Part shown: positions 1-37,853 of the stretch, in pieces
Position numbering within the stretch: the stretch's first letter is position 1
Layout of the letters: the number at the start of each line of letters is the position of its first letter
The notes under the pieces: generated by a model
Databases searched by the model: none
What the model was told of the DNA's origin: nothing
Seen by the model: the letters and a program-made list of their open reading frames with translations, nothing else
Assembly: GCA_030390025.1 (NCBI GenBank)
Contig: CM059427.1
Span: 188,480,001 to 188,544,000, forward strand
DNA from: Squalus acanthias
Taxonomy: Eukaryota
Reading direction: 5' to 3'
Length of the DNA: 64,000 bases
Program-made: the position numbers and the translations under genes

Positions 1-857
1 GCCTCCTGAAACAGGCTTTAGGTGTCTTGCACATGCAATTCTGGGTCCTAATGCAAACTGGAGGACCCCGATTGAAATTGGTGTACAGATGGGCGGAGCT
101 TATGCCGGGCCAGCTCCAGCTCACTGTACCAGGTTTTGAGTGGATGAACCACTGGTGTTTAACAGGACCGTTGGAGGCTGCTCAAGAAATGGCCGGAAAA
201 CCTTTTAACAGTTACATTTCTGTGGAGCTAGGAGGAGATGGAGTGCTTCTCCTGGCTCCACAATAATACTGCGGCCTAGGTTCGACCCCCACACAAGCCC
301 ACGGGTTTGGCTCCCCAAAGGACCTACCTGTGGGCTGGTTCAGCATCGAAGCTGGCTGGAATTCATCAGGCCCCCACTGGGACACAATGATTGGCGTCTG
401 TGGATCGTCTGTTTCATTCTAATGAGGGCTGATTTTGAATTTCATCTGGCCCCAGGCCGGCAGGGACCGACGCTCAAAGCAATCACTTCGCCAACTTGAT
501 GCCCATTTTGGGCCCAAGTTCAATTTCTCAGTGTAACTCAGCATGGCGTCACTCTGATATATACTTCTGTTCTGACCCTGATCCCATCACTCAAACACCA
601 CGGACAAATGCTCACCTGCAGAGTCAGATATCCATCTGTTACATCGGAGCGGACACTAGCACTAACTGTGCAATGTAAGTCTGAACATCCTTTATTCTAG
701 ATTGCGCATAGCAAGATCCCACAAACAGCAATGTGGTGTTGACCAGATCATCTGTTTTTTTAGTGATAATTATTAGCCAGGACACCGGGGAGAACTCTTC
801 TTTGAATAGTGTCATGGGATCTTACGTCCACCTGATCACATCTCATGTGAAAGACAG

Positions 858-1187
858 CACCTCTGACAGTTCATCACTCCCTCAGTACTGCACCTCTGAC
901 AGTGCAGAACTCCCTCAGCACTGCACCTCCGACAGTGCAGAACTCCCTCAGTACTGCACCTCTGACAGTGCATCACTCCCTCAGTACAGCACCTCTGACA
1001 GTGCAGAACTCCCTCAGTACTGCACCTCCGACAGTGCATCACTCCCTCAGTACAGCACCTCTGACAGTGCATCACTCCCTCAGTACTGCACCTCTGACAG
1101 TGCATCACTCCCTCAGTACTGCACCTCCGGCAGTGCAGAACTCCCTCAGTACTGCACCTCTGACAGTGCAGAACTCCCTCAGTACTG
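858..1187. repeat. 33-bp minisatellite, 10 copies, expanded from a Deu-type SINE
   Basis: Unit cacctctgacagtgca(gaa/tca)ctccctcagtactg, embedded in a minus-strand SINE (~700-1210). Confidence 0.95.
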
Positions 1188-1320
1188 CACTAAAGTGTCT
1201 GCCTGGATTAAGCACTTTGTGATGATGGAACTTGCATTGATATCACCTGATTCACGTTCTCAGGATCTCTCGAAGTGCTGCACAGTCAATGTAAGTTAAC
1301 TGATCTTTATTTGTTTTTAG

Positions 1321-1602
1321 ATGCACCACGGAATCTCTCAATTACTTCTCGTGATACGATTAATAATTCCTCGATCAATATAAAAGAAGGGATATCTGTA
1401 GTGATACTCTGCTCTGTCGAGAGCTTCCCAGCTTCTAACCTGACATGGCGATATCGTGGTGTCACAATGAACAGAACAAGTTCCAGCAACAAGCTGTGGT
1501 TGGAGTTTCCTCACGTTACATCCAGGGTCACTGGAGACTATCAGTGTGTGGCGGAGAATGAACATGGGGCAGTGGAGAGTTTCATAACCATCACTGTGGA
1601 AT
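1321..1602 (+). CDS. Ig C2-set exon (copy 1) of a Siglec/CD22/sialoadhesin-like receptor
   Basis: Acceptor ttgtttttag| and donor |gtgagt; 282 nt, phase 1/1. Encodes (Y)APRNLSI…EGISVVILCSVESFPASNLTW…DYQCVAENEHG…ITVE. The YAP…C-S-V-x-S-x-P…L-T-W…Y-x-C-x-A-x-N-x-x-G pattern is typical of Siglec-family C2 domains. Confidence 0.9.
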
Positions 1603-1790
1603 GTGAGTGTACAGATACTTTCACATATGAACATACAAATTAGGAGCAGGAGTAGGGCACTCGGCCCCTCGAGCCTGCTCCGCCATTCAATAAGATCACG
1701 GCTGATCTGATTACTCCACATTCCCACCTACCCCCGATAACCTTTCACCCCCTTGCTTATCAAGAATCTATCTACCTCTGCCTTAAAAAT

Positions 1791-2587
1791 AGTGTGAAGT
1801 AATGCATTTGGGGAGGGCTATCAAGGCAAGGGAATACACAATAAACGGTAGGCTACTGAGAAGTGTAGAGGATCAGAGGGACCTTGGAGTGCATGACCAC
1901 AGATCGCTGAAGGTAGCAGGACAGGTAGATAAGGTGGTTAAGAAGGCATACGGGATACTTTCCTTTATTAGCTGAGCCACAGAATAGAAGAGCAGAGAGG
2001 TTATGCTTGAACTGTATAAAACACTAGTTAGGCCACAGCTAGGGTACTGCGTACAGTTCTGGTCAACACATTACAGGAAAGATATGATTGCACTAGAGAG
2101 GGTACAGAGGAGATTTACAGGCTGTTGCCAGGAATGGAGAATACTAGCTATGAGGAAAGATTGGATAGGCTGGGATTGTTTTCTTTGGAACAGAGGAGGC
2201 TGAGGGGAGACATGATTGAGGTGTATAAAATTATGATGTGCCGAGATAGAATGGATGGGAAGGACCTAGTTCCATGAGCAGAGAGGTCAATAACCAGGGG
2301 CCATAGATTTAAATTAATTGGTAGAAGGATTAGAAGGGAGTTGAAGAGAATATTTTTCACCCAGAGTGTGGTGGGGGTCTGGATCTCACTGCCTGAATGG
2401 GTGGTAGAAGCAGAAACCCTCATCGCATTAAAAAACTACTTGGATATGGGCTTAAAGTGTCGCAACGTACAAGGCTACGGACCAAGAGCTGGAAAGTGGG
2501 ATTAGGCTGGATAGTTCTTTTTTGACCGGCACAGACATGATGGGTCGAATGGCCTCCTTCTGTGCCGTAACTTTCTATGATTCTATG
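1791..2587 (+). mobile_element. 5'-truncated CR1 LINE (ORF2 C-terminus and 3' tail); repeated at ~4740-5536 and ~7656-8452
   Basis: LYKTLVRPQLxYCVQFWS…ERVQRRFT…SLEQRRLRGD…TRGH motifs and a (ttctatga)n tail; preceded by an inverted CR1 3' end at ~1628-1790. Confidence 0.9.
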
Positions 2588-3740
2588 ACACAAAGGCACA
2601 CATGCACACACAGAAAAACATGAGCACACACACACTTGTGACTTGACTGACCTCCCTCAGTACTGCTCTGGAGTCTTGGCCTGGATTCTGGGCTTCGTGT
2701 TGAAAATTGCAATTGAAACTCCCCACTCTTGAGGCTCAGAGAAACTCTTCTTCTCTGCCTGTCTCAACTCATCCTGGAAACATCGGAGCCTCATCACTCT
2801 CATTCTAACTGAGGGATCGTGCATTGTGACCACAAGAGCAGGAAACTCGAGGCTCTGGGTGGCCTCCTGAAACAGGCTTTAGGTGTCTTGCACATGCAAT
2901 TCTGGGTCCTAATGCAAACTGGAGGACCCCGATTGAAATTGGTGTACAGATGGGCGGAGCTTATGCCGGGCCAGCTCCAGCTCACTGTACCAGGTTTTGA
3001 GTGGATGAACCACTGGTGTTTAACAGGACCGTTGGAGGCTGCTCAAGAAATGGCCGGAAAACCTTTTAACAGTTACATTTCTGTGGAGCTAGGAGGAGAT
3101 GGAGTGCTTCTCCTGGCTCCACAATAATACTGCGGCCTAGGTTCGACCCCCACACAAGCCCACGGGTTTGGCTCCCCAAAGGACCTACCTGTGGGCTGGT
3201 TCAGCATCGAAGCTGGCTGGAATTCATCAGGCCCCCACTGGGACACAATGATTGGCGTCTGTGGATCGTCTGTTTCATTCTAATGAGGGCTGATGCTGAA
3301 TTTCATCTGGCCCCAGGCCGGCAGGGACCGACGCTCAAATCAATCACTTCGCCAACTTGATGCCCATTTTGGGCCCAAGTTCAATTTCTCAGTGTAACTC
3401 AGCATGGCGTCACTCTGATATATACTTCTGTTCTGACCCTGATCCCATCACTCAAACACCACGGACAAACGCTCACCTGCAGAGTCAGATATCCATCTGT
3501 TACATCGGAGCGGACACTAGCACTAACTGTGCAATGTAAGTCTGAACATCCTTTATTCTAGATTGCGCATAGCAAGATCCCACAAACAGCAATGTGGTGT
3601 TGACCAGATCATCTGTTTTTTTAGTGATAATTATTAGCCAGGACACCGGGGAGAACTCTTCTTTGAATAGTGTCATGGGATCTTACGTCCACCTGAGGGG
3701 GCAGACGGGGCCTCAGATAAACATCTCATGTGAAAGACAG

Positions 3741-4136
3741 CACCTCTGACAGTTCATCACTCCCTCAGTACTGCACCTCTGACAGTGCATCACTCCCTCA
3801 GTACTGCACCTCTGACAGTGCATCACTCCCTCAGTACTGCACCTCTGACAGTGCATCACTCCCTCAGTACTGCACCTCTGACAGTGCATCACTCCCTCAG
3901 TACTGCACCTCTGACAGTGCAGAACTCCCTCAGTACAGCACCTCTGACAGTGCAGAACTCCCTCAGTACTGCACCTCTGACAGTGCAGAACTCCCTCAGT
4001 ACTGCACCTCTGACAGTGCATCACTCCCTCAGTACTGCACCTCTGACAGTGCATCACTCCCTCAGTACTGCACCTCCGGCAGTGCAGAACTCCCTCAGTA
4101 CTGCACCTCTGACAGTGCAGAACTCCCTCAGTACTG
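3741..4136. repeat. 33-bp minisatellite, 12 copies
   Basis: Same unit; 396 bp. Confidence 0.95.
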
Positions 4137-4269
4137 CACTATAGTGTCTGCCTGGATTAAGCACTTTGTGATGATGGAACTTGCATTGATATCACCTGAT
4201 TCACGTTCTCAGGATCTCTCGAAGTGCTGCACAGTCAATGTAAGTTAACTGATCTTTATTTGTTTTTAG

Positions 4270-4551
4270 ATGCACCACGGAATCTCTCAATTACTTCTCG
4301 TGATACGATTAAAAATTCCTCGATCAATATAAAAGAAGGGATATCTGTAGTGATACTCTGCTCTGTCGAGAGCTTCCCAGCTTCTAACCTGACATGGCGA
4401 TATCGTGGTGTCACAATGAACAGAACAAGTTCCAGCAACAAGCTGTGGTTGGAGTTTCCTCACGTTACATCCAGGGTCACTGGAGACTATCAGTGTGTGG
4501 CGGAGAATGAACATGGGGCAGTGGAGAGTTTCATAACCATCACTGTGGAAT
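4270..4551 (+). CDS. Ig C2-set exon (copy 2) of the Siglec-like receptor
   Basis: Same exon with intact AG/GT splice sites; differs from copy 1 by one N>K codon (aat>aaa). Confidence 0.9.
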
Positions 4552-6689
4552 GTGAGTGTACAGATACTTTCACATATGAACATACAAATTAGGAGCAGGA
4601 GTAGGGCACTCGGCCCCTCGAGCCTGCTCCGCCATTCAATAAGATCACGGCTGATCTGATTACTCCACATTCCCACCTACCCCCGATAACCTTTCACCCC
4701 CTTGCTTATCAAGAATCTATCTACCTCTGCCTTAAAAATAGTGTGAAGTAATGCATTTGGGGAGGGCTATCAAGGCAAGGGAATACACAATAAACGGTAG
4801 GCTACTGAGAAGTGTAGAGGATCAGAGGGACCTTGGAGTGCATGACCACAGATCGCTGAAGGTAGCAGGACAGGTAGATAAGGTGGTTAAGAAGGCATAC
4901 GGGATACTTTCCTTTATTAGCTGAGCCACAGAATAGAAGAGCAGAGAGGTTATGCTTGAACTGTATAAAACACTAGTTAGGCCACAGCTAGGGTACTGCG
5001 TACAGTTCTGGTCAACACATTACAGGAAAGATATGATTGCACTAGAGAGGGTACAGAGGAGATTTACAGGCTGTTGCCAGGAATGGAGAATACTAGCTAT
5101 GAGGAAAGATTGGATAGGCTGGGATTGTTTTCTTTGGAACAGAGGAGGCTGAGGGGAGACATGATTGAGGTGTATAAAATTATGATGTGCCGAGATAGAA
5201 TGGATGGGAAGGACCTAGTTCCATGAGCAGAGAGGTCAATAACCAGGGGCCATAGATTTAAATTAATTGGTAGAAGGATAAGAAGGGAGTTGAAGAGAAT
5301 ATTTTTCACCCAGAGTGTGGTGGGGGTCTGGATCTCACTGCCTGAATGGGTGGTAGAAGCAGAAACCCTCATCGCATTGAAAAACTACTTGAATATGGGC
5401 TTAAAGTGTCGCAACGTACAAGGTTACGGACCAAGAGCTGGAAAGTGGGATTAGGCTGGATAGTTCTTTTTTGACCGGCACAGACATGATGGGTCGAATG
5501 GCCTCCTTCTGTGCCGTAACTTTCTATGATTCTATGACACAAAGGCACACATGCACACACAGAAAAACATGAGCACACACACACTTGTGACTTGACTGAC
5601 CTCCCTCAGTACTGCTCTGGAGTCTTGGCCTGGATTCTGGGCTTCGTGTTGAAAATTGCAATTGAAACTCCCCACTCTTGAGGCTCAGAGAAACTCTTCT
5701 TCTCTGCCTGTCTCAACTCATCCTGGAAACATCGGAGCCTCATCACTCTCATTCTAACTGAGGGATCGTGCATTGTGACCACAAGAGCAGGAAACTCGAG
5801 GCTCTGGGTGGCCTCCTGAAACAGGCTTTAGGTGTCTTGCACATGCAATTCTGGGTCCTAATGCAAACTGGAGGACCCCGATTGAAATTGGTGTACAGAT
5901 GGGCGGAGCTTATGCCGGGCCAGCTCCAGCTCACTGTACCAGGTTTTGAGTGGATGAACCACTGGTGTTTAACAGGACCGTTGGAGGCCGCTCAAGAAAT
6001 GGCCGGAAAACCTTTTAACAGTTACATTTCTGTGGAGCTAGGAGGAGATGGAGTGCTTCTCCTGGCTCCACAATAATACTGCGGCCTAGGTTCGACCCCC
6101 ACACAAGCCCACGGGTTTGGCTCCCCAAAGGACCTACCTGTGGGCTGGTTCAGCATCGAAGCTGGCTGGAATTCATCAGGCCCCCACTGGGACACAATGA
6201 TTGGCGTCTGTGGATCGTCTGTTTCATTCTAATGAGGGCTGATGCTGAATTTCATCTGGCCCCAGGCCGGCAGGGACCGACGCTCAAAGCAATCACTTCG
6301 CCAACTTGATGCCCATTTTGGGCCCAAGTTCAATTTCTCAGTGTAACTCAGCATGGCGTCACTCTGATATATACTTCTGTTCTGACCCTGATCCCATCAC
6401 TCAAACACCACGGACAAACGCTCACCTGCAGAGTCAGATATCCATCTGTTACATCGGAGCGGACACTAGCACTAACTGTGCAATGTAAGTCTGAACATCC
6501 TTTATTCTAGATTGCGCATAGCAAGATCCCACAAACAGCAATGTGGTGTTGACCAGATCATCTGTTTTTTTAGTGATAATTATTAGCCAGGACACCGGGG
6601 AGAACTCTTCTTTGAATAGTGTCATGGGATCTTACGTCCACCTGAGGGGGCAGACGGGGCCTCAGATAAACATCTCATGTGAAAGACAG

Positions 6690-7052
6690 CACCTCTGACA
6701 GTTCATCACTCCCTCAGTACTGCACCTCTGACAGTGCAGAACTCCCTCAGCACTGCACCTCTGACAGTGCAGAACTCCCTCAGTACTGCACCTCTGACAC
6801 TGCATCACTCCCTCAGTACAGCACCTCTGACAGTGCAGAACTCCCTCAGTACTGCACCTCTGACAGTGCATCACTCCCTCAGTACTGCACCTCTGACAGT
6901 GCAGAACTCCCTCAGTACTGCACCTCTGACAGTGCAGAACTCCCTCAGTACTGCACCTCTGACAGTGCAGAACTCCCTCAGTACTGCACCTCTGACAGTG
7001 CAGAACTCCCTCAGTACTGCACCTCTGACAGTGCAGAACTCCCTCAGTACTG
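6690..7052. repeat. 33-bp minisatellite, 11 copies
   Basis: Same unit; 363 bp. Confidence 0.95.
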
Positions 7053-7185
7053 CACTAAAGTGTCTGCCTGGATTAAGCACTTTCTGATGATGGAACTTGC
7101 ATTGATATCACCTGATTCACGTTCTCAGGATCTCTCGAAGTGCTGCACAGTCAATGTAAGTTAACTGATCTTTATTTGTTTTTAG

Positions 7186-7467
7186 ATGCACCACGGAATC
7201 TCTCAATTACTTCTCGTGATACGATTAAAAATTCCTCGATCAATATAAAAGAAGGGATATCTGTAGTGATACTCTGCTCTGTCGAGAGCTTCCCAGCTTC
7301 TAACCTGACATGGCGATATCGTGGTGTCACAATGAACAGAACAAGTTCCAGCAACAAGCTGTGGTTGGAGTTTCCTCACGTTACATCCAGGGTCACTGGA
7401 GACTATCAGTGTGTGGCGGAGAATGAACATGGGGCAGTGGAGAGTTTCATAACCATCACTGTGGAAT
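7186..7467 (+). CDS. Ig C2-set exon (copy 3) of the Siglec-like receptor
   Basis: Translation identical to copy 2; intact splice sites; its phase-1 donor is compatible with the TM exon at 11203. Confidence 0.9.
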
Positions 7468-10400
7468 GTGAGTGTACAGATACTTTCACATATGAACATA
7501 CAAATTAGGAGCAGGAGTAGGGCACTCGGCCCCTCGAGCCTGCTCCGCCATTCAATAAGATCACGGCTGATCTGATTACTCCACATTCCCACCTACCCCC
7601 GATAACCTTTCACCCCCTTGCTTATCAAGAATCTATCTACCTCTGCCTTAAAAATAGTGTGAAGTAATGCATTTGGGGAGGGCTATCAAGGCAAGGGAAT
7701 ACACAATAAACGGTAGGCTACTGAGAAGTGTAGAGGATCAGAGGGACCTTGGAGTGCATGACCACAGATCGCTGAAGGTAGCAGGACAGGTAGATAAGGT
7801 GGTTAAGAAGGCATACGGGATACTTTCCTTTATTAGCTGAGCCACAGAATAGAAGAGCAGAGAGGTTATGCTTGAACTGTATAAAACACTAGTTAGGCCA
7901 CAGCTAGGGTACTGCGTACAGTTCTGGTCAACACATTACAGGAAAGATATGATTGCACTAGAGAGGGTACAGAGGAGATTTACAGGCTGTTGCCAGGAAT
8001 GGAGAATACTAGCTATGAGGAAAGATTGGATAGGCTGGGGTTGTTTTCTTTGGAACAGAGGAGGCTGAGGGGAGACTTGATTGAGGTGTATAAAATTATG
8101 ATGGGCCGAGATAGAATGGATGGGAAGGACCTAGTTCCACGAGCAGAGAGGTCAATAACCAGGGGCCATAGATTTAAATTAATTGGTAGAAGGATTAGAA
8201 GGGAGTTGAAGAGAATATTTTTCACCCAGAGTGTGGTGGGGGTCTGGAACTCACTGCCTGAATGGGTGGTAGAGGCAGAAACCCTCATCGCATTAAAAAA
8301 CTACTTGGATATGGGCTTAAAGTGTCGTAACCTACAAGGCTACGCACCAAGAGCTGGAAAGTGGGATTAGGCTGGATAGTACTTTTTCGACCGGCACAGA
8401 CATGATGGGTCGAATGGCCTCCTTCTGTGCCGTAACTTTCTATGATTCTATGACACAAAGGCACACATGCACACACAGAAAAACACGAGCACACACACAC
8501 TTGTGACTTGACTGACCTCCCTCAGTACTGCTCTGGAGTCTTGGCCTGGATTCTGGGCTTCGTGTTGAAAATTGCAATTGAAACTCCCCACTCTTGAGGC
8601 TCAGAGAAACTCTTCTTCTCTGCCTGTCTCAACTGATCCTGGAAACATCGGAGCCTCATCACTCTCATTCTAACTGAGGGCTCGTGCATTGTGAGTACAA
8701 GAGCAGGAAACTCGAGGCTCTGGGTGGCCTCCTGAAACAGGCTTTAGGCGTCTTGCACATGCAATTCTGGGTCCTAATGCCAACTGGAGGACCCCGATTG
8801 AAATTGGTGTACAGATGGGCGGAGCTTATGCCGGGCCAGCTCCAGCTCACTGTACCATGTTTTGAGTGGATGAACCACTGGTGTTTAACAGGACCATTGG
8901 AGTCCGCTCAAGAAATGGCCAGAAAACCTTTTAACAGCTACATTTCTGTGGAGCCAGGGGGAGATGGAGTGCTTCTCCTGGCTCCACAATAATACTGCGG
9001 CCTGTGTTCGACCTCCACACAAGCCCATGGGTTTGGCTCCCCAAAGGACCTACCTGTGGGCTGGTTTAGCATCGAAGCTGGCTGGAATTCATCAGGCCCC
9101 CACTGGGACACAACGATTGGTGTCTGTGGATCGTCTGTTCCATTCTAATGAGGGCTGATGCTGAATTTCATCTGGCCCCAGGCCGGCAGGGACCGGCGCT
9201 CAAACCAATCACTTCGCCAACTTGATGCCCATTTTGGGCGCAAGTTCAATTTCTCAGACTTGGAACCTGCAGATTTAAAAGCAGAGGAATGAAAGGGGAC
9301 CTTAAAGACGTTTATAAGGTAATGAATGGAACAGAAAATATTGGTCTGGATGAAAATCTCTGGACTGGTATAAGAGGCAGTTGGAGACTGTGATGATGAG
9401 ACTGTGAGATTACATCGAAGGATTAGCTGGAGGAACCGACTATCTTCTCTCATCCCTTGTCTTTATTTATCCTCATAATAATAAGGTTGAGTCCATGAGG
9501 GTGCTGCCAGAAAATGAAAAGCGAAGGTGTAGTGTTAGGAGATTTAAATCAGTCAGGAAATATTAAAAGGAGGAAAAAGCATCAATGGTACATGGCTGAA
9601 ATAAAGAACAGAGGGAAAAGAAACAAAAAGAAGCATCAGCTACACTGGGTTAAAAAAACTCACAGGATTGAAGGAATCAAAAGCCTGTTAGACCGTTAAA
9701 CTTACTGTGAATTCAGCTCTATCACCAACGTTGTTTGTGCCGGATTCTCACACAGGTCTTGTGATTCACTGAGCAGTGGGAATTCCTACAGAGTATCCGT
9801 GATAGGCACCAGACAGCAATTCACCACCTCAACAGCACCTGTCCACGCACTGAGTGTTAATAATAGGCTCAGCAATATTACAAGGCAAGGTTTCACACCG
9901 AGCAGCACAGTGCGTGGATCCTGCGTTAGCTCCCACACTAGAAACCCCGCCAGAGGAACTTGGGGTCGATGTGAACTATCGGGTGTCTGACCGGCGGAGC
10001 GGGAGGGCGATGGACGGCCGCCCGATGGTGCTGACGACAGGCCCGGTCCATGTTGACGGACGGGCCTCATTAGCATCACACCGGCAGGCCTTGGGCAGAA
10101 ATCGATGGGCCTACCGCCTGACTCCGCCCACCCAGCGCTAGGCCCGGGAGAAGATCGCTGCGGCAACAGTGACTGCAGGAATGGGGGGAAGGGGGGCTGA
10201 GCCATTCCTGGCCATTTTCCGGGACATCACCATCCCGATTCCACCAGCCGGGAGGCCTCAAAATTCAACCACTCACTCCCTGAACAGTGGGATTATAGGT
10301 CATTGAATACAATAGTACATTGAGGCTTGCAAACCAGATATTAGAGAAGAGAATGACATTGATATGGAGAGTAAACTAAAGACAAATTATTGGGGATAAC

Positions 10401-11202
10401 ATGGAAGATCACATTCAATGTTCTGTTTAATAGTTTAAAATTAGGTTTGATAATCTTGACCATGATCAATGCCATGGGAGATGACCCAGTCCATCATAAT
10501 TATTATGGAAGTCTGTCTACTGATGAAATTGTTCATTTACATCAAGTACTTACCTCATCTAGTGTTACAATATTATATTAATTAAGATTTTGAAATAAAA
10601 TATTAAATTAAATGTACCATAGATAAACATTACAACAACACACAAAACTTTCAAAAACATGCATGGTAGCACTGTTAAACATTAATAGTTTCAACAAAAT
10701 TGAACCTTGTCAAAATAGATACTTTTTTTGACTAAATACCAGTTAGAGATCTGTGGCTGTCTCACACCTTGATGGTTAATGTCTCCCCAGACAGCACAGC
10801 CGAGATTGGGAACTCGCCACCTGGGGAATCTCAGGTGTGAATCTGTATTCTGCCACTCTGGTCAGGACAACACTTTCACATCCAGTTTGACAGTTTAGAC
10901 AATGAATTACCCATTTTTGAGTTTATTCACTCCCTTTTCATTCACTCAGAGCTGCTCACTTTAATTCAAAACCATTGCACCCACAAGAATCTGATGAAAA
11001 TAGTCAAATCCAGACACATTTTATGTGTCAGAAAGAACACAACGTGGACTTGGTCTTGATGGAAATATTTGGTTCTCTGGCTCCCAGTGTTTAAAGCAGA
11101 ATGTTTTCACTTTCCACATCTTTTATAGAATGACTGGCAGGAGTATTTAAATATTAAACGAGATGGAGAGAGAAACTAAAATATCAACTTTGTCCTTCAC
11201 AG

Positions 11203-11306
11203 TGAGACCACTTCCGGAGATTTGGATCATCACAGTTTCGAGCTACTTGTTGGTTAAACTGGGCGTTGCTGTTGGACTAATTTGCTGCTTGAAGAGGATG
11301 ACCAGA
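11203..11306 (+). CDS. Transmembrane exon of the Siglec-like gene, with a Lys inside the TM segment
   Basis: Acceptor tttgtccttcacag| and donor |gtaaga; phase 1 in, phase 0 out. Encodes (L)RPLPEIWIITVSSYLLVKLGVAVGLICCLKRMTR, a hydrophobic stretch followed by a basic stop-transfer. Confidence 0.85.
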
Positions 11307-11571
11307 GTAAGAATTTCTTTAAGCTTTCCAGTAAATCAGGAATTTGTGCCGAGCTGTCACTTGACATTGAGAAAACTGATGTTCGTTGAACAGATATTAT
11401 GTGGTCACAAACTGTATTTTAAAATGTCATTTAAATATTGCACATTGTACTGAATTTGAAGGAATCATCAGTTAAAGGAAGCAATTGTTCCAAATTTGGT
11501 GAAATCTTAGAGCTTTGAATATTTTTCCTGATTCAAACGGCAATAACTTCCCTGCTCCCACTTTCCATCAG

Positions 11572-11625
11572 GCTCTGAGGAAGGAATCAGGGCGATCTCG
11601 GAGGGCCATACCTGATTATCAATGA
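11572..11625 (+). CDS. Candidate terminal cytoplasmic exon A (ALRKESGRSRRAIPDYQ*)
   Basis: Pyrimidine-rich acceptor cttccctgctcccactttccatcag|; open in phase 0 up to TGA. No transcript evidence. Confidence 0.4.
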   Translation, partial: ALRKESGRSRRAIPDYQ

Positions 11626-12384
11626 ATGGACAATGCTCAAACTAGGAGCCCAATCTTTTAATATTTTTCACTGATTATCACAAATATTCTTCTTGGAAAT
11701 TAGTAACTTGAAAGTTGTCAGAAACCAATATTTGAACAGTTAAAGCACAACCAGTAAAAATTACGATTAAAGGAAGTTACTAATGTATTCTGTGACAATT
11801 AATGAGTTTGATCATTTTAACGTGTGCTGTTATTGTTGTTGCTGTGGTCTGGTGGCGCCAGAGAGCTGCAGTAGTGTTGGGGCCAAAAATGAATTTGTCG
11901 CTCTGTAAACCACTTACTCTGTGGCAGGTTTGGTTTACCTGATTTACTCCAAGTCAAATCTCAGTCAATTCAAAAGCAAAGTTTCTGTTTCGGAGATCCC
12001 TGTCATGTTTGTGTTCAAGGAAGGAGTGTTTCAAGCCTGTGTGCTTCTGGGTGAAGCGAGGCATTGTAGAATGGGAACTATTGGGGTGAGAGGCACAGAA
12101 ATGTGGTAACTAGTGGAAAGTTTGAACTGACATGAAGGATGTGAGGTAATCTGTATTGTTCAGGATGTTTACATAGAATTACGTAGAATTTACAGCACAG
12201 AAACAGATCATTCGGCCCAGCAGGTCTGTGTCGGTGTTTATGCTCCACACGAGCCTCCTCCCACCCTACTTCATCTCACCCTATCGACATATCCTTCTAT
12301 TCCTTTCTCCCTCATGTACTTATCCAGCTTCCCCTTAAATCAATCTGTACTATTCGCCTAAAACACTGCATATTATTGCGAGTT

Positions 12385-12670
12385 CCAGCGAGGAAGGAAT
12401 AGGGAAATCTCTGAGGGCCAAACCTGATTATCAATGAATGAAATAAAGACAGAAAATGAATGAACTTTGCTCACACTAGGAGCCCAATATTCTAGTTTTA
12501 AAATTTTTCATTGAATTTACTGTCACAAATATTCCTCTTGGAAATTGGAAGTTAATAACTTGATTGTCGTCAGAAACCAATATTATTTGAACAGATGTTT
12601 GAAAATGCACAACCGGTAAAAATTACAATAAACTGAACAGTACGACTGTATTTAGTGAAAATTAATGATT
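12385..12670 (+). repeat. Diverged local duplicate of ~11575-11810 (candidate exon A and downstream sequence)
   Basis: gaggaaggaat…gagggcca.acctgattatcaatgaatg…actaggagcccaat…cagaaaccaata…caacc.gtaaaaattac is present at both sites. Confidence 0.8.
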
Positions 12671-13171
12671 ATGATAAACTTTACATCAGATCACAGTTCA
12701 GGGAGGTAACAACAGAGACAGGATCAGTAGCTTTAGTAGGAGAGCATTGTTCTGTCAGAAGCAGAGTTGTCAGTTCAAGGAGGTAACTTTACGGTGAGGT
12801 CAGTCAACCACAGGGAGATCCTCTTCGAAATGTGGTCACACTGTGGCCATGAACTTCGAGCTCAATGGTGTGACCTTATTTTACATTCATACATTCATTG
12901 TAGGAAAAATCTTCCACAGTATCTTCTGTCAGTAACTGCAGTTAGTTTATCATTTTAATCGGGTCTGTTCCTTCCAATTACTGAAGCCTTTAATTGTTGA
13001 AATTATCTCATTAACACTGAGCCAGTGATGTGTGGGTCATGGTCTGTTCTGTTGCCCATTCTGTAAAATTACTCCTCTATTCCACTTCCTCTTTATCCAT
13101 CACTTCCAGTCCAGTGTTTATTATTGAAGTATAAGCTCTTTATTTAAAGCACATTTCTTGCCTCTTGTCAG

Positions 13172-13279
13172 ATATCGAACAGCGGGAATCCACACGAGGC
13201 GACAGGAAATCAAACAGATGATTCACAAGAAGCCGTCGCATTACAGACCCTGAACTCTGATACTGATCTGAGATCATAG
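13172..13279 (+). CDS. Candidate terminal cytoplasmic exon B (ISNSGNPHEATGNQTDDSQEAVALQTLNSDTDLRS*)
   Basis: Acceptor catttcttgcctcttgtcag|; 35 hydrophilic codons open in phase 0; no tyrosine. An AATAAA lies downstream at 13954. Confidence 0.5.
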   Translation: MSNSGNPHEATGNQTDDSQEAVALQTLNSDTDLRS

Positions 13280-13953
13280 AATGACTGATACAGCACAGAA
13301 GGAGGCCATTCAGCCCATCGTGCCTGTGCTCATCGGGATCTGTAGTCTCTGGAAACTAGATCAATCCAACTTGGGAAACTTCAGAAATAGATTTGTGGTT
13401 TTATTCTGGAGTTATTTTGTGGTAATTTTTTTATGTAACTAGTTTAGTTTATATCCCGACGTGTCCATTTCAATAGTTCCCAGTCTCAGTATCTGTTACT
13501 TTACTTTACAAGTCTTAACTTGCCAGGTCACTATAAGAAATTCTAATGGGTGGAAAATCGTGCTGATGTTCGGCTGAATTCCTGATCTCCACTCGTGACT
13601 GGTGAGGCTCCAGGCTGGGGACACAGTTTTATAACTGTAGGGACTGACGGAGACCCAGTGGTACAGCCGTGTGTGGAGCTTGAAGTGTTGGGACGTGGAT
13701 TTGTGACTTTGGGTCCCCAATGAGTGATCTCAGCTGGACTCTCTCTGCAGAGGAGCTGAATGGAGCTGAGCTGCTACAAATGAGAAGGAATGAAACTCGG
13801 CTCAGTAAATATGGGCGTCTCCCCTGCACCTCCCAGCACCTGTTCACACAACGAGATCGCGGAATCTCCGGAGAAGGTTGTCTCCATGCTCCCACCCAGG
13901 GAATTGTTTGCAGCAGAGCGCGACTAAAAGATTAACAGAAAAGAAACAGCATG

Positions 13954-16250: not shown

Positions 16251-16375
16251 TCCAGCATTTTCTGTTTTTATTCCTCTTTAGCCACATTGCAATAATGGGG
16301 AGATTACATTTCTCTTTCATTTTGACTCCATTCTTTTAACCATTTATGGGAATGCATCCAAGGTAATGGATCTGT

Positions 16376-16763
16376 GTACATGATAAACCCCTTCGAATCC
16401 AGCACAGCTCCAGCTCTGTACATGATAAACCCCTTCGAATCCAGCACAGCTCCAGTTCTGTACATGATAAACCCCTTCGAATCCAGCACAGCTCCAGTTC
16501 TGGACATGATAAACCCCTTCGAATCCAGCACAGCTCCAGTTCTGTACATGATAAACCCATTCAAATCCAGCGCAGCTCCAGTTCTGGACATGATAAACCC
16601 CTTCGAATCCAGCGCAGCTCCAGTTCTGGACATGATAAACCCCTTCGAATCCAGTACAGTTCCACGTTCTGGACATGATAAACCCCTTCGAATCCAGCAC
16701 AGCTCCAGTTCTGTCCATGAGAAACCCCTTCGAATCCAGCACAGCTCCAGTTCTGGACATGAC
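16376..16763. repeat. 42-bp minisatellite, ~9 copies
   Basis: Unit acatgataaaccccttcgaatccagcacagctccagttctg(t/g). Confidence 0.95.
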
Positions 16764-17389
16764 AAGACGGCTCAGCAAAAGCCTGAGATTGTTCTGTGTG
16801 AAACTTTCAGGCCTTTGATCTGCTCCTCACTTTCATAATAAACCTGGACTCACTTCCCCAGATTCTGGGTCACAAATAGTTTATCAAAATGTACAGAAGT
16901 ATTACAGTGAATGAAAATGAGGCCAAGAGAGATTCCCTCAACTGAAGTGAGGTGTGATCTGGTTGCTGAGTCGTCACCTCCTAATCCAAGTTCGGAGAGT
17001 CCCTTCTCATCCATTGTCTGCTCCAGACTGAGGAGAATCTGTGGGAGATGAGTGACTAAATATCAAACTGTGTGGGAGAGGGAGGTCATTGGGAGGGGGG
17101 ACGGCCCATCACCACCTCAGGTGCCAGTGCTGCCCTCATCCTGAGAATAAATATAAAAAGGATCCTTTTTCAGTGTGTATTTTCCAGAAGTTTCCACCAC
17201 AGCCTGCATTCTGCAGGGAAATAAAGTTTCTTCTCATCTTAACTCTGTCCTCAGGTTTTATATTTTTACCCAGCTCCTGTAGTTTTATATTCATAATTCA
17301 ACTTAAACTACCTGCTCACACCTAAATTGTCAGTCACTCTCATCATTTTAAAGATTTCGATCATGTCATGTGTCCCCCTTAATCTTCTT

Positions 17390-29545: not shown

Positions 29546-30037
29546 CATGATAAACATGATCAATAAATGGAGCAGCAGTGAATTAAAAAATGCTAATTAC
29601 TGTTAATTCATACCCTCAGTTATATAAAATTCGGTAGTTTTCTGATCAGTGTAAGTGAACATTATGGTGGAGAAATCTTTTGCAAGTTTACTTTTGGTCC
29701 ATTTTTCCTACAATAGGTCATTACATTTCTCTTTTTATTCCTACTTTATTTACTTTATTATCAGTTGAATATTAGGATGAGTATCTTTCATTAAACTTCT
29801 CACAGGAAGAACTGACGTATTTTACTGAAGGCGTTTTTGGACATTTTACAGTTCCAAGTTAGAATGAGGAAATAATTTGGAAAGCTCTTTTACCTCATTT
29901 CTTTCTCTTCACAGTCTGAAGTGTTAAACATATTGAAGAAATGTGCCTCGGTTTTACTTCTGGTGGTTTTCTGGTGCTATGTATATTTTTATATCTACAT
30001 GTATATTTCTTACAGGCAAAGAGACGGAATCTGTGAA

Positions 30038-30125
30038 ATGAGGCTACGATTTTTCTGCAGCAAAATGCCAGCTGGTTTGATGTTCAGTTTCTTTGTGTTT
30101 CTACTTCTGTCTGTTTTCATACAAA
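30038..30125 (+). pseudogene. Leader (signal-peptide) exon of the four-Ig V-C2-V-C2 gene
   Basis: Acceptor tttcttacag| at 30015; ATG at 30038 (alternative 30065). Encodes MRLRFFCSKMPAGLMFSFFVFLLLSVFIQ; phase-1 donor |gtaagt. Confidence 0.75.
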
Positions 30126-32210
30126 GTAAGTGCCTTTTTTCCACCAATCACATTCATATGGGCCCGGGTTTTGCGATGGGTATGACCGCATACTCTGAGA
30201 GTACGCCGTCATTCAACAGAAAGTTGTATACATCGGGACTAATAAATTGTGAGTTTGGATGAAAAAAAACCAAAATGCTGATATATGAAATAAGTCCAAG
30301 TCCCAGTTTAATTTAAAGTTTTTAAAACTTTTTGAAAAGGAATTTCAATGGAGGAGACTGAGAGACGTTTCTGTGGGCGTGGCTCAGTTTTGACAGATTT
30401 TATGGGAGTGTTTTCTCTTATGCATAGGCTGTATGCTGCGCGCTGCCTCCCTGATGTCATACGCTGCGCAGAGCTCTGCAGTGCAGAAGAGCAAGTCTCC
30501 GTTCTGGTCCTCCCACCAGGTAAGTTTGTATATCTTTTCATAGGTCGGCGGCGTACTCCGTAGCTACACCACCGACCACAATTTTTGAGCCATTGTTTCA
30601 ATTTATCATAGGCCGTGATCTTCCATCTCGGTGCGGCTTGAGGGCGGGACAGCTGCCTTCCGGGTTCCAGTCCCGCCCCCAACTACGTCCGACTCACAGA
30701 CGTTATTTTGCGTCAATTGGCCTTGTTAAGCCTGCACTGCGGGCTTTCCGGCCAATTAAGAGAAAGCCAGTGTCAGATAACGTCAGTTGATGAAACTTCA
30801 TCTGCCGGTTTTCTTAAAGGGACCATGCACAATTTTTTTTGACAGCTGCTTTCTCAGTGTTTCACAGCATTGAAATGCTGCAAACACTGACAATCACTGA
30901 ACAAAGGTGAGCCTTTGCACCCAGGCTCTCCAGTGATGCCCTCCTTAGGCTAGAACAGATGGCAGCTGCAGGTGAGGTTACAGAAGTGATCTGTCACTGG
31001 TGACAAATGCTCACCCAATGAGGTGGGACTACACAAACAATTCAAAACTTGTCACCTGCAGAAAAGATTAAATACATTAAAAATGATTTTACCAACATTT
31101 TCTTACCTCTGAAACTCACCAGTTCACCATTGGATCCATCACACCACTTCTTCAGCTGTCATCAAAGCAGAAACATTACAGCAGACTCACAACACGCCAC
31201 AATTACCTCGTGTGGTGTCCAGACGTCGGGAAGCCTGCAGTAGACATGTCAAAATTGCAAAAAGCCTCTTAACTGCCTGTTAACTACCTGTTAACAAGCA
31301 GTTAGGTGGCTATAATCCTCTTCCCGCTTCTAGGTGTAGGGTCCATGCGCAAATCAGGGACCCGACACCTGGGAAGATTGTTTGGAGGTGAGTTGACAGT
31401 GGGTTTCCGACCCGCTGTCAATCTTTGCAATTTTGCCGGATGTCCCTCCTCCAAACCCGCTCCCTGAGCGCTGGCAAAATTACCCCCATAGTGTTTAATG
31501 AATTCACACACCCAGTATTCAGAAAGCAAGTAAGGTCTTCATTTTCATGTCCCTGCTCCTTTAAACAGGATGTGTAAGTTCACTTTTCAGATTCCAACAA
31601 TACAACAACATAATGGCCTGGATTTTCCGGGGCCTATGACGGCGTACGTGGTGTGTGCACGGCCGTAAGTGCCCCGCAGGTTCCGGGTTTCCACATGAGC
31701 TGCACTTGCATGAGAACCTAGAACTTGCAATCTGTCAAGTTTCAGCTTGACAAATCCACCGCATCCCCAGAAAGTGGACATTCGCTGGCGGGAAGCCTCC
31801 GACTGCAAAGTCAGTCCCATTAAAATCAAAAATGTTAGCCTATTTCTCATTGCACTTCAACTCCTTTTCCCAGTCAATCTGTTAATCTCTCTGTCTGTCT
31901 ATACATCTACTCTTGCATGTAGCAAGCTTCCATCACATAGCTCAATGTCACATTTCAAAGTGTCACACTCACTCTGTGGAGCACTCTCTGTATTCCACGA
32001 TATTTCAGATTTCAACAGCCTAACAGATTGATTGTGGTATAGAATGGTTTCAAAATTAATAACAATATTCAAATGTTAATAAAATTAAGAATTATTGAGA
32101 AGTTATTGTTGATTGAGCCTGTGCAATTTACAGAAGTTACATTTTCATAAAACAACATTTGAAAAAGTCTTAGTAGGTTGTAACCTGAACAAGCTGGGAC
32201 TCTTTTCTCT

Positions 32211-32530
32211 GTCGGAGGTGCCGTCTTTCGGATGAGACGTTAAACTGAGGCCCTGTCTGCTCTCTCAGGTGGACGTAAAAGATCCCATGGCACTATTTCG
32301 AAGAAGAGCAGGGGAGTTATCCCCGGTGTCCTGGCCAATATCTATCCCTCATAACAAAGACATTAACTGCTCATTATCACATTGCTGTTTGTGGGAGCTT
32401 GCGGAGCGCAAATTGGCTGCTGCATTTCCTACATTACAACAGTGACTACACTTCAAAAAGTACTTCATTGGCTGTAAAGCGCTTTGGGACGTCCGGTGGT
32501 CGTGAAAGGAGCTGCAGAAATGCAAGTCAT
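32211..32530 (+). mobile_element. Deu-domain SINE inserted into a CR1 3' fragment (~32170-32960)
   Basis: ggaggtgccgtctttcggatgagacgttaaac…aaagatcccatggcactatt…attgctgtttgtggga…gtaaagcgctttggga; the CR1 frame (LGLFSL|EKRRLRGD) resumes after it. Confidence 0.85.
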
Positions 32531-33700
32531 TGTTTCTTCTTTCTCTCTTTCTTTCCAGAAAAGAGAAGGCTGAGGGGGTGACCTAATAGTAGCCTATAAA
32601 ATTATGAAGGGGTTTATAGAGTAGACATAGAGAAGATGTTTCCACTTGTGGGTGAGTTCAAAACTAGGGCTTATAAATATAAGATAGTCACGAATAAATC
32701 CAATCAGGAATTCAGGAGAAAATTCTTTAGCCAGAGAGTGATTAGAATGTAGAGCTCGCTACCACATGGAGTGGTTGAGGCGAATAGCATAGATGCATTA
32801 AAGGGGAAGTTAGATCAGTAAATGAGGGAGAAAGGAATAGAAGGATATGCTGATAGGCTTAGATGAAAGAGGGTGGGAGGACGCTCATGTGGAGCATAAC
32901 CACCGGTACAGGCTAGTTGGGCCGAGTGGCCATTTTCTGTGCTGTAAATTCTGTGTAATTCAAGATTAGTTTCAAATTTTAGGTTTAAACTTCACTGTGC
33001 ATGGAGCCATTTTGTTTTTGGTTATTGTGATAATAACAATGAACTATTGACTGAATGGTGTGACCAATGTCACCAGAGGCCACCTGGAAGTGTCCAAATG
33101 CATTAATGTGAAGTGCATTTTTCACCGTCACATCCACAGTTGTCACCTTTCACAGATAAGGCAAAGCACCTGCTGGAAAGAGGCTACAAGTCAGGTTCCA
33201 AGAGCTGGTTTATCTCTGTCACGGTGTCTCATCAGACAAGGTGGTGGGGGGTGGACTCAGGAACTGCCTGATCTCTGCCCACCTCGGGAAACCCCGTCAC
33301 AGGACAAACGGGGTGGAAACCCGACATAACCGTATCCTGCCCCAATTTCTCTCCCTGAACTCCTGTCCACCCTGATAATTCCCCTGTAGACCAGGAGTCA
33401 CGAGGAGATTTGGAACCTTTATTTTCTGTAACATGGAAATAACCATGTGCAACTTTTTACTTCGATTATTTTTTGTAGTAATGATGTATGTCCTGATAAT
33501 TCTAGTAATAGATACACTGAATATGTAATGGAATTGTTCTGTTTTTCTCTGTAATAGTGTCTGCAGTTAAGGCAACATGATCAGTTAAATATAAAAATAT
33601 GACTGTAAATAAATGAACTCCAATATAAATAATTATAACTATGGGATTAAGGAGTTGTGAATTGATATTAAAATGCTTACATTGTTCCTCTTTCTTACAG

Positions 33701-34047
33701 GAAACACAAATGATATGTATTGTTTGGATAAGGGAGATGGCATTCCATTAAAAGAACTGGACAATCCTGGGAATGGCCCTGTTGTCTGGGAATGGAAATC
33801 ACACTCAGGGCAAGAAATGCAGCGGCTGGTTACTTTTCACAAAGTGAGTTCGGACTGGTGGGTCACGCAATGGAACAATGACTTTGGAAATAAGGAGTTG
33901 TACAAAAATGCATGGCAGGATGGGATGGTGTTTCCATTGATCTGAGTATTACAAATCCTACATTTAAATTTGCAGGCTCGTTCATCTTGAGTTAAACACA
34001 GCCGAGTAATAAAACCTTGAAACAGTATGAAATATTTGTGCTCAAAG
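33701..34047 (+). pseudogene. D1 (V-like Ig) exon, with a frameshift and a premature stop
   Basis: AG/GT bounded. …GPVVWEWKSHSGQEMQRLVTF… shifts frame near 33910-33920 into …WDGVSIDLSITNPTFKFAGSFILS*TQPSNKTLKQYEIFVLK; TAA at 33993-33995. Confidence 0.8.
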
Positions 34048-35644
34048 GTGAGTGGGACAAATTCTAGAAAAGGTTCATTAATATGACTCTCCAAAAATAA
34101 TTTTACTTGTACAAATGAGAGATTGCCAGGATCACGTGAGATTTATATCACCCAGTGCAGAGAGCATCTCTCATTAAAACAACCAGGGGAAAGATTTTGT
34201 TCATTGTTTCTCCTGAAATGGTCAACATGAGTAAAAACTTTTCGACAATTTCACCAGAAATAGCAAACCGAGGAATCTACCCCACAGAGAGTATTATGGT
34301 CTGTACACTGGCACACTCTCTGTCAGATGTACTGAATTCTGTTACCAAACCAATAGATCACTTGTAGTAATAAGCCTCAGCGCGATGGGACAGGAATAAG
34401 ATTGGCCAGAATCACTGCTCCTGATTGCTGTCCAGTGAACCTGTTAGATGTGTCACTTGGATTAGGTCCCAGAGGAAGTCAAGCGTCCCTGGAAATTGTA
34501 CTCTGCCAAAAAGTTAATGCCTTCAGGAAAGCAAGGGGAACATGGCAGAGAAAAACCGATACATTGTGTTAATTCAATAATATTTAAAACTTTTAGTATA
34601 ATTAAATCAAAATCTTTAGATTCTGCCAACTAAGGATGTTGCTCAACAGCTGCACTTCCTGGATGCTTGATGTGCTTAAATACTAAATGAGGCTGAGGTC
34701 ACTGTCATATGTACTTGATACAAAATATAATTCAATCCTGAAATGTCGTAGTGGACAAAATATGATCGTGACTGTACTGGGCCTGGACCATTGCTCCTGA
34801 GGTGTTGGCCCAAACTGCACCAGAATGTGTTGACCATAATAGAAAGTCAACTCATTTACATTTGTTGGTGGCACTCATGGTACATAGTGCGTGGTACACG
34901 GGGAATGTCACACGGGTCGGGCACCAGAGTGTTGGGCGCCAGCAGCTAATGGATGCCACCATTGTTTTAGCCTGACATTGGAATTAAAGTCCCTGTTGAA
35001 GATTTGATTCTTACTTGTCATGTTGTAGGTGGGACTGAAAGTCAGGGTGGGCATTTTTAGAACAAGCCTCTCCTGAAGTGCCATTCCTCATGGACGCTCA
35101 ATGATTGGAGCCCTGCTCAGGAGCATTTTGGGAGCCCACTCATTTAAATAACGTAATGACTTTTGGCGTGGATTTTGTGCACAGGCTCCCAGTGCGTGTG
35201 TTGGGTGGTCTTACTGAAGTGTGCGAGGCACATTGAGAACAGAGTGGGACTGGAGCCTTCTCCATGTCTGATAATATGGGCGCTACATTTCCATCACACC
35301 CTCCTCTGGTGAGATTCCATCACCTGTCCATTGTGGTGTCGGCTTCCCCAAATGTCATCCAATCTATGTAACCTTAACCTGACCCCGGATACTCCAGCAG
35401 GGTCAGGGGTAAAGGTCATCGGCCGCACTCTGGCTCATTCACGCTGGCAGAGCTGGACTGAGAATTTTCAGCCTCACTGTGTTATTCTACTGACAAAATG
35501 CACTTGTGTGTAATCTGGCCTGACTCTTTAATGCAGCAAGGTACAAGTGCTGATGATGGGCACATCCTACGGTCAGTTAGAACCTAATCGTTGGATTGTA
35601 CATGTCACTACTTACACTAAATCTTATTGATATGTTTTTCACAG

Positions 35645-35914
35645 TTGAGTCAAGTCCACAGAGTGCTGTGGTGGGCAGTGACGTTACACTCAGCTGTACC
35701 ATCTCCAAACTCTCAGATACAGTCAGTCTTCAATGGAAACAGAGAGACTCATCTCAGCAGAACAGGAGCAACACTGATCAGATCCGACTAAATAACACAG
35801 TCTATCTGATAGTCAAACATGTTGCAGTAGAGGATAAGGAGTTGTACGCGTGTGAAGTGCAGGAAGATGGATCCATTATTCTCACTGGAAAAGCAGATTT
35901 TTCTGTGGCCCAGG
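35645..35914 (+). pseudogene. D2 (C2-type Ig) exon, open
   Basis: tttttcacag|…|gtaagt; 270 nt, phase 1/1. Encodes VESSPQSAVVGSDVTLSCTIS…LQWKQ…LIVKHVAVEDKELYACEV. Confidence 0.9.
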
Positions 35915-36319
35915 GTAAGTGCAGTTACCTCACAGTAGATATTAAAGAGTTACTAATATAAAACTGTTACATATAAAGTGGAGTCATACATGTCAACCAT
36001 CAGCACTTCATGCTTACAGTCATGCGGTCTGCACAGAGCGGGATTAAATAGAGTGGACTTGAACAGAGTGCTTTTGTCGGGAATTTGGAAATAGTGGGAA
36101 TTCGGAGAAGAGAGGGAAGGAGTTGTTGCTTTTTCCTACACTACTTTTAGTGCTTTGTATTACAGGTAAATATTTAATTTTGGTGTAAATATAACATTGC
36201 AATACATAGAAACATAGAAACTAGGAGCAGGAGTAGGCCATTCGGCCCGTCGAGCCTGCTCCACCATTCAATACGATCATGGCTGATCACCTAAATCCAC
36301 TACCCTGTCCCTGCTTTCT

Positions 36320-36652
36320 CACACAGAATCCCCATCGAGCCTGCACCGACACATATCCCACCCTATCCCCGTAACCCCACGTATTTAATTCCCCCTAACA
36401 TATCCCATCCTATCCCCGTAACCCCACATATTTAATCCCCCCCTAACACTAAGGGTCAATTTATCATAGCCAAATCAACCTAACCCGCACATTTTTGGAC
36501 TGTGGGAGGAAACCGGAGCACCCGGAGGAAACCCACGCTGACACGGGGAGAATGTGCAAACTCCACACAGACAGTCACCCGAGGCCAGATTCGAACCCGG
36601 GTCGCTGGCGCTGTGAGGCACCAGTGCTAACCACTATGCCACCGTGTTGCCC
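36320..36652 (-). mobile_element. HE1-type V-SINE
   Basis: tRNA-like head (ggtggcatagtggttagcac…gggttcgaat) and V-domain (tgtgtggagtttgcacattctcccc…gggtttcctccgggtgctccggtttcctcccaca) on the minus strand. Confidence 0.9.
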
Positions 36653-37421
36653 TACAGTGGGTGAATATTAACAACTAGCTCTTGATGGATCTGATAATAA
36701 ATAGCTAAAGGGTTGAAGGTGGACAGCAACATTCTCACACAGCTCATCAGTTACTAAAACACAGAGACAATTCTTTTCTAAATATGGTTCACTTTATTCA
36801 CTGCAAGGGCACAGCATAAAAGTCCATCCCTGAATATCTATTCAGTGCTCTTCCAATACAGTGTATGGCCGGAATTTTCCCGGGTGGTAGCGGGGGCGAT
36901 CGGTGGCGGGTCGGGTGGGAAAGTTATTCATAGAAGTTTACAGCACAGAAGAGGCCATTCAGCCCATCTTGTCCATGCAGCCTACTAACACGTGGTTAAC
37001 GAGACATCTTAACAAGATTCCTTGCCACTTTTATTATTCACATAGCAGCCCTTTTTGAATGGAAGGATAAAGCTAGAAGTGATAATGCCATTTTGAGGTA
37101 ATTTGTGAAACAAAGCAGACTAGATCAGCATTTTATCCACTGTATCTTTTCCATGAGTTGGCACCATGAGAAAGAACACTCTATCTGTGCAGGTACTGCA
37201 ATCTAACAGAGATTTAAAATGAAGTCATTTGAAAATGACTTTCCTATTCTCATATATAGGAGACTATCCACCCTGTGCTCTACTTAAATAATCAATAACC
37301 TTTATTAAATTATGTTATGGTCTGAACACAAAATAATTCATGTGTAATTATAGTAATTATTTCTTCCTTTTTGATGTATCACAGTCGGAGCAAAAATCAA
37401 AATCCTCTTTTCCTATTACAG

Positions 37422-37769
37422 CTCGATATTTTCATCAGCCTGCCTACACATGTTATCGGTCGAGTACAGTTCACAGTGAAGTTCACCTGATGGATGATTC
37501 TCGTTATTTCTGGAGATATCGTAAAGCTGCCTGGATTTGGAAGTCACATCACTCTCCAAATCAAGAGATACAGATAGCTTCTTATTTCAGATCTCACCGT
37601 ATCGATCTAAACATGACGTACTTTGGGAATCGAATAAATGCAATAAAGAGATACTTTGACAGGAACATCATTGTACAGATTGTCCCTGTGCTGTTTGATG
37701 ATGCAGGAGATTTCACATTAACTGTCAATTCAGAAAAACTAGTGACCATTACACTAATCACAGTTAAAG
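37422..37769 (+). pseudogene. D3 (V-like Ig) exon, open
   Basis: ttttcctattacag|…|gtaggt; 348 nt, phase 1/1. Encodes …EVHL…AAWIWKS…YFGNRI…VQIVPVLFDDAGDFTL…ITLITVK. Confidence 0.85.
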
Positions 37770-37853
37770 GTAGGTGACAGAATGCTGCCATTGTTGCCAG
37801 TCATCATTAATCAATTATTGTTTAAAATCTAAATGATTTTCTTGTTTACACAG

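Follow-up and report, generated by a model that had tools for sequence, protein, structure and literature searches.

A tandem immunoglobulin stalk in Squalus acanthias belongs to a gene that joins a Siglec ectodomain to the leader, anchor and tail of an unrelated receptor family

What kind of receptor stands on a stalk of almost identical immunoglobulin (Ig) domains? The question is raised by a 64,000-nucleotide (nt) stretch of the Squalus acanthias genome (NCBI GenBank assembly GCA_030390025.1, contig CM059427.1, positions 188,480,001–188,544,000 of the forward strand; hereafter the window), in which a preliminary description had noted a stalk lengthened by tandem amplification of a symmetric C2 exon and likened it to those of sialoadhesin and CD22. 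The lengthening is as described. What that comparison missed is that the array is part of a hybrid gene, whose Siglec ectodomain lies between the leader exon and the Lys-bearing anchor and tail exons of an unrelated Ig receptor family, here called family X. With moderate confidence, we read the array as the stalk of this Siglec/family-X hybrid, likely an activating receptor paired with an inhibitory Siglec nearby.

A Siglec ectodomain between family-X ends

The hybrid gene has nine exons, all with AG and GT at their splice sites, that read as 686 in-frame codons with no internal stop. Its ectodomain is laid out as V-C2-C2x4, with five C2 domains of which four are near-identical, and begins left of the window with a V exon (L001 437–802) and a domain-2 exon (L001 4696–4989). 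The top PDB sequence matches of the V exon are MAG and Siglec-10, -5, -8, -1 and -7, and a model of the domain (predicted local distance difference test score, pLDDT, 91.6) finds its closest folds in MAG and sialoadhesin, at a template-modelling (TM) score of about 0.86. R102, within the motif YFFR, aligns with the essential F-strand Arg (YYFR/YFFR) of MAG, Siglec-5 and Siglec-10, a residue with at least 90% conservation across 30 V domains from sharks and rays. Finding this exon with its Arg bears out the earlier assignment of the gene to the Siglec type. Siglecs characteristically have an intra-sheet cysteine pair between strands B and E, no F-strand Cys, and an extra Cys in each of V and domain 2. 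In sequence the hybrid fits this pattern, with C21, C26 and C84 of V conserved and no Cys in the strand at 97–105; the second Cys of domain 2 follows six residues past the first. A G-strand aromatic residue of Siglecs contacts the glycerol side chain of sialic acid; the corresponding region here reads HNYY, its register against Siglec-5 being ambiguous. We infer that V would recognise sialylated ligands similar to those of a close paralogue, P2, described below.

The stalk domain is likewise an Ig domain with MAG as its top PDB match. Its exon, 282 nt long, flanked by AG and GT and in phase 1-1, occurs three times within the window, on the forward strand at 1321–1602, 4270–4551 and 7186–7467 (copies b, c and d, identified by exon ends, frame and N-glycosylation sequons). 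Re-reading the sequence reproduced what had been reported of these exons, including their intact splice sites and the one residue by which they differ: copies c and d are identical, and a single base change in copy b turns K to N and so adds an NNS to the sequons NLS, NSS, NLT and NRT of each domain. The array does run past the left edge of the window, as had been stated, and an upstream count gave just one more copy, a (L001 5987–6268; 7 nt different), for a total of four; the right end of the array is at position 9257.

At both ends of this ectodomain the sequence belongs to family X. The leader exon (L002 8853–8913, left of the window) is 93–97% identical to 10 other X leaders, lies 1.6 kb before the V exon and in phase with it, and is the sole leader found within 12 kb upstream, its splice to V being a prediction; the junction between the two families on this side, J0, runs from L002 9408 to L001 66, left of the window. 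On the other side, homology switches at junction J1 (8568–8577, no strand assigned), where the two families overlap by 10 nt and the Siglec side has one mismatch. Native Siglec introns align as far as 8577, and the last intron of family X aligns from 8568 onward. This intron (8578–11202, forward strand) is 95–97% identical to five X genes over 8568–9700, and the similarity extends through the anchor, the tail and the 3′ region. The anchor exon (11203–11306, forward strand), the best membrane exon downstream of the stalk, encodes a 24-residue hydrophobic stretch with Lys at position 13, and is followed on the same strand by a cytoplasmic exon (13172–13279) of 35 residues, without tyrosine, that ends in a stop; the first AATAAA lies at 13954.

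Sixteen other copies of the anchor exon (90–99% identity) all lie on C3 between 186.4 and 189.5 Mb, and each of the seven whose surroundings were fetched follows family-X Ig exons. In sharks and rays, the anchor is present in 12 of 83 family-X proteins and in none of 93 Siglec proteins, so that it is native to family X. No Siglec domain was detected in those 83 family-X proteins (E<1e-8), and a protein search driven by the anchor, weak since it relies on a word index, returned three proteins, all of family X. The gene therefore bears the family-X marks of leader, Lys anchor and short tail, and between its leader and anchor no X Ig exon was found.

In the hybrid, as in sialoadhesin, CD22 and MAG, glycosylated C2 domains in tandem carry a V domain, and MAG and sialoadhesin are its best matches in sequence and fold. 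CD22 carries a tail with multiple immunoreceptor tyrosine-based inhibitory motifs (ITIMs). The hybrid, whose 35-residue tail exon lacks Tyr, has no tail of that type, and it differs from CD22 and sialoadhesin in combining two families and in having an anchor of the activating type.

The repeat unit and its history

The amplified unit had been described as an exon plus an intron. Both are indeed duplicated, and each unit also carries a half exon of domain 2 and a piece of family-X intron, in the order half exon, minisatellite-bearing intron, stalk exon, Siglec intron containing a long interspersed nuclear element (LINE), and about 690 nt of family-X intron. The piece copied into the units corresponds to 8578–9257, the window opens on the end of that of the first unit (1–531, forward strand), and J1 is present in every unit. 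The half exons, each made up of 143 nt from the 3′ end of the domain-2 exon, lie on the forward strand at 532–674, 3393–3535 and 6342–6484, directly behind a second recurrent junction, J2, which cuts the domain-2 exon in its middle; the donor is intact, an AG stands just before, and splicing after a C2 exon would encode Leu followed by a stop. A 33-bp minisatellite occupies the intron before each stalk exon (6686–7055 in the last unit, no strand assigned), with 20, 10, 12 and 11 cores across the four units, whose spacing is 2861, 2949 and 2916 nt.

The amplification had also been called very recent. This holds for its last steps, units 1 and 2 differing at 8 of 2546 nt (99.7% identical), but not for the array as a whole. 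Between units 2 and 3 there are 42 differences in 2202 nt, two of them up to 7084 and 40 from 8040 onward, which is the pattern expected of, and probably left by, an unequal crossover between these two positions. In the family-X intron piece, moreover, the three upstream copies differ from one another at only 2–3 of 680 nt, whereas they differ at 24–28 of 680 from the last copy and from the corresponding piece in another paralogue, P1. It follows that the first duplication predates the last amplification.

These junctions suggest a history in four steps. A Siglec would have come under a family-X leader via J0, which P2 shares; a microhomology-mediated join at J1 would then have exchanged the Siglec 3′ end for the X anchor and tail; a duplication reaching from the X intron back to the middle of domain 2 would have produced J2 and with it the repeat unit; and unequal crossing-over, most recently between 7084 and 8040, would have brought the units to four. 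On a tree of the X intron pieces either J1 or J2 may have come first, and the second and third steps may have taken place in either order.

Paralogues, donor family and known paired receptors

P2, at C3:186.93 Mb and 1.5 Mb from the hybrid gene, has the same X leader and J0 but retains its own D4 and D5, a native anchor, and a tail with LLYANI and TEYAEI, an ITIM plus an ITIM-like motif. It is identical to the hybrid at 352 of 363 nt of V (11 differ) and 288 of 291 nt of domain 2 (3 differ), and it looks like both an intermediate step and an inhibitory partner of the hybrid gene. Ten of the 11 differences in V lie in codons whose residue is changed, with clusters at residues 63–74 and 107–108 (L001:439–801 against L034:3309–3671), numbers that are small but that hint at diversifying selection. 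P1 (L024–L028, C3:186349024–186386322) combines a native Siglec leader and an ITIM tail with one occurrence each of J1 and J2 in its stalk, and probably arose by recombination with a gene of the hybrid type.

Native Siglecs of this genome differ from the hybrid at both ends. The native leader gave seven matches in the fetched DNA, lying 2.8–7.5 kb before V wherever the V exon was fetched too, and none of them near the hybrid gene or P2. Native anchors, many of which have Glu inside the hydrophobic stretch (for example L035:4249–4345), are of two types: in the first, all 30 translated matches (two partial) are without a mid-membrane Lys, while the second, with 10 exon matches in the genome, carries Arg in all three that were translated. 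Shark Siglecs with this Arg anchor (7 of the 93 proteins) share with the hybrid the ectodomain family, an activating-type anchor and a short tail, and one of them, P0160, has the same layout of V-D2-C2x4; they differ in using an exon of the Siglec cluster, whose Arg lies near the outer membrane face, where the hybrid uses the central Lys of family X. By the rule set out in a passage of PMC4258407, an Arg so placed is of the FcR-gamma type, and a Lys within the membrane couples to DAP10 or DAP12. The central Lys of the hybrid would accordingly be expected to recruit an adaptor of the DAP12/DAP10 type, and the leader region common to the hybrid and P2 would lead the same cells to express both, as an off/on pair. 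A search of the genome for the DAP10 family gave no match, its short exons being easily missed.

Such a pair would resemble primate Siglec-5/-14 and Siglec-11/-16, in which, according to PMC6288428, an ITIM receptor shares a near-identical ectodomain with a partner that lacks an ITIM and has a basic residue in the membrane, and gene conversion between Siglec genes keeps the two alike. The hybrid agrees in its ectodomain, near-identical to that of P2, its central membrane Lys and its Tyr-free tail. It departs from those pairs, whose signalling half belongs to a Siglec gene, in owing its leader, anchor, tail and 3′ end to a family other than the Siglecs, through junctions that can still be read. 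Cattle KIR offer a second parallel: PMC4258407, in the passages that treat them, reports that recombination has recurrently exchanged the tail of an inhibitory receptor for a short activating one, yielding short-lived receptors. The tail swap is alike and the donor is not, the hybrid having drawn on a different family. LILR, considered as a tail donor for the activating cattle KIR, provides no precedent, the same passages stating that the tails are not from the neighbouring LILR.

Family X itself is a large multigene family of Ig receptors in sharks and rays, located here at C3 186.4–189.5 Mb, with ITIM-type and Lys-type members that are mostly annotated as 'uncharacterized'. The C2 domains of its donor proteins contain WxC, a motif described in PMC10768021; its nearest Atlas clusters include G6F-like and CD4, and CD276, LAG-3 and CD4 appear as weak PDB matches. 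In these respects family X resembles the V-C2-V-C2 receptors CD4, LAG-3 and G6F; it differs from them in being multigene, with both ITIM-type and Lys-type members.

A further X member lies within the window itself (30012–49997), with a frameshifted Ig exon near 37841–37920 and, at about 49894, a divergent anchor in which Gln replaces Lys. Elsewhere, 42-bp and 62-bp minisatellites occupy 16333–16795 and 50955–51954, the 42-bp one recurring 3′ of several X tails. Open reading frames (ORFs) at 61688–63973 and at L017 181–1935, with zinc-knuckle-like and protease-like DTG motifs and one long frame that is envelope-like, have the look of an endogenous long terminal repeat (LTR) element, and a 410-residue ORF on the reverse strand at 46763–47995 resembles a Harbinger-type transposase.

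Transcription and competing accounts

Is the hybrid transcribed? Four sequencing runs, X6, X12, X17 and X20, were compared with window positions 7185–7469, and X6 and X12 contain contigs with zero differences from the stalk exon. One contig of X12 departs from the window after 7467 and has 104 further letters, as many as the anchor exon, the first 30 of which equal 11203–11232; no such stalk-to-X-anchor end is listed in X6, X17 or X20. Since no 14-mer of the C2 exon recurs in 425 kb of family-X DNA, this contig is unlikely to be an artefact of graph construction. A contig with copy a's three letters likewise occurs in X12. Among the fetched loci, only the hybrid gene matches the strings that are specific to a, to c/d and to b/c/d, and those of a and of c/d are found exactly in X12. 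A contig of X6 that extends 29 letters beyond 7467 is a candidate C2-to-C2 junction of the hybrid gene, absent from the joints listed and so not counted, and contig depth does not serve here as a measure of copy number. The anchor-to-tail splice from 11306 to 13172 (GT..AG) is present in X17, a joint that any X member could yield. Head-to-tail C2-to-C2 splices occur in X17 and X20, in contigs that lie 16–17 differences off and hence belong to relatives. Among 15 of 200 joints listed for 7100–13900 from X1, X2, X17 and X20, where LINE contigs dominate, the C2-to-anchor joint was absent; X1 and X2, whose organism label is unlike that of X6 and X12 and whose letters differ at many places, were set aside as evidence either way.

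In native paralogues, contigs pass straight from V to a stalk exon (X17) and from a stalk exon to a native-type anchor (all four runs); the family thus includes short forms.

The main rival to a hybrid activating receptor is that the gene is transcribed debris, left when a fragment of a Siglec came to lie in a family-X locus; its splicing would reach the following anchor exon by default, and it would have no selected function. Its surroundings give this account some substance. An X gene at C3:188357128–188380681 loses homology at 188380681 and has no anchor, and two orphan X leaders (C3:188421134 and 188441892) are followed by no X Ig exons, all three being possible remnants of the donor of the hybrid; many paralogues are broken. 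Silent changes are not in excess among the stalk copies, and nothing here shows selection. Set against this are a reading frame and splice sites that are intact throughout, despite 24–28 differences in the 680 nt of X intron piece between the old copies, the retention of both the Lys and the essential Arg, and the contigs identical to the stalk exon in two samples. On balance we consider debris unlikely, if by no means negligible.

Several of our observations nevertheless weigh against the activating receptor that we favour. Six of the seven differences between copies a and d alter the protein, with no sign of purifying selection, and the stalk of P2, its proposed partner, is a single, interrupted exon. 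Broken paralogues being common, a transcribed accident is possible. Native activating-type Siglecs with an Arg anchor are already in the genome, so that the hybrid would fill no empty role. The runs X6, X12, X17 and X20 are taken as probable RNA by guess, no RNA label being on record, and the stalk-to-anchor join is seen in one contig of one of the four, which does not show its length on the C2 side.

Could selection instead have acted on the length of the stalk, as for sialoadhesin or CD22, with copy number and skipped exons tuning it? Phase-1 exons that can be skipped or added symmetrically, a recent unequal crossover, and the C2-to-C2 joints of a relative in two runs are all compatible with such tuning. 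So too are the arrays of other Siglec genes. In a tree of 38 full-length stalk exons (interrupted and partial exons, and one copy without its first residues, were excluded) copies mostly cluster by gene, with 10 label changes where the minimum is 9 and shuffling gives a mean of 22.3, so these arrays arose or were homogenized repeatedly. But the property holds family-wide and does not single out the hybrid. A protein search of the genome with the stalk exon gave at least 69 matches; the fetched loci hold as many as 14 copies on C3542 and seven at C17:54.02 Mb; and the 93 shark and ray Siglec proteins have 0 to 10, with 3–5 sequons per stalk domain as usual, all close homologues found being from sharks and rays. 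A tandem stalk is thus ordinary in this family and four copies is mid-range, which removes the extension as a special trait of this gene and makes length-tuning an improbable explanation of it.

Two of the paralogous arrays have structures of their own. At C3542:1068645–1127382 (L061–L067), a broken V exon is followed by 13 tandem stalk exons, an anchor, and one more exon and anchor. At C17:54023252–54033660 (L069–L070), V, D2 and seven older stalk exons precede a damaged ITIM exon, and no anchor exon was found between these stalk exons and the ITIM exon.

It is very improbable that the domain-2 half exon is itself spliced in, the stop that follows leaving a mainly soluble or degraded product. 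The kept donor, the AG before it and the Leu-stop that inclusion after a C2 exon would give would permit this, but no half-exon match occurs among the 18 loose ends listed for the four probable-RNA runs, and the AG is ordinary X-gene intron sequence that P1 has lost. Least credible of all is an assembly artefact, whether a false duplication or a mis-join of two gene clusters, for despite the near-identity of units 1 and 2 and the abundance of near-identical paralogues in the region, there are no gaps (no N letters in the window or the 200 kb around it), the units differ in single-nucleotide polymorphisms, minisatellite counts and a 22-nt deletion, J1 and J2 recur in P1 at about 4% divergence, and data sequenced separately contain both the hybrid splice and copy-specific letters.

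Returning to the hybrid as an activating partner of P2, we put forward, as a tentative proposal, that it is a natural chimera: through recombination of two Ig families that are unrelated, a Siglec moved under the promoter of a CD4/LAG-3-like paired family and subsequently split into the inhibitory P2 and a DAP12-type activating form. If so, cells that express family X would have gained a new off/on glycan sensor, and P1 and P2 would be intermediates that survive in the genome. Neither such a hybrid nor a fusion of shark Siglec and family X is described in the titles and abstract openings of the open-licence papers and preprints searched.

Activating partners of inhibitory receptors arise repeatedly, and in the Siglec and KIR cases, as described in the passages cited above, the signalling half comes from the receptor's own family. 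The present locus represents another route, by which a promoter region and a signalling half were borrowed from an unrelated family through breakpoints that can be read base by base; together with the surviving intermediates, these allow each step in the origin of a paired receptor to be tested. The locus suggests that two paths to an activating Siglec are open to sharks, one through a native Arg anchor and the other through a Lys anchor borrowed from another family. It also brings to light a largely unnamed family of paired receptors in sharks and rays.

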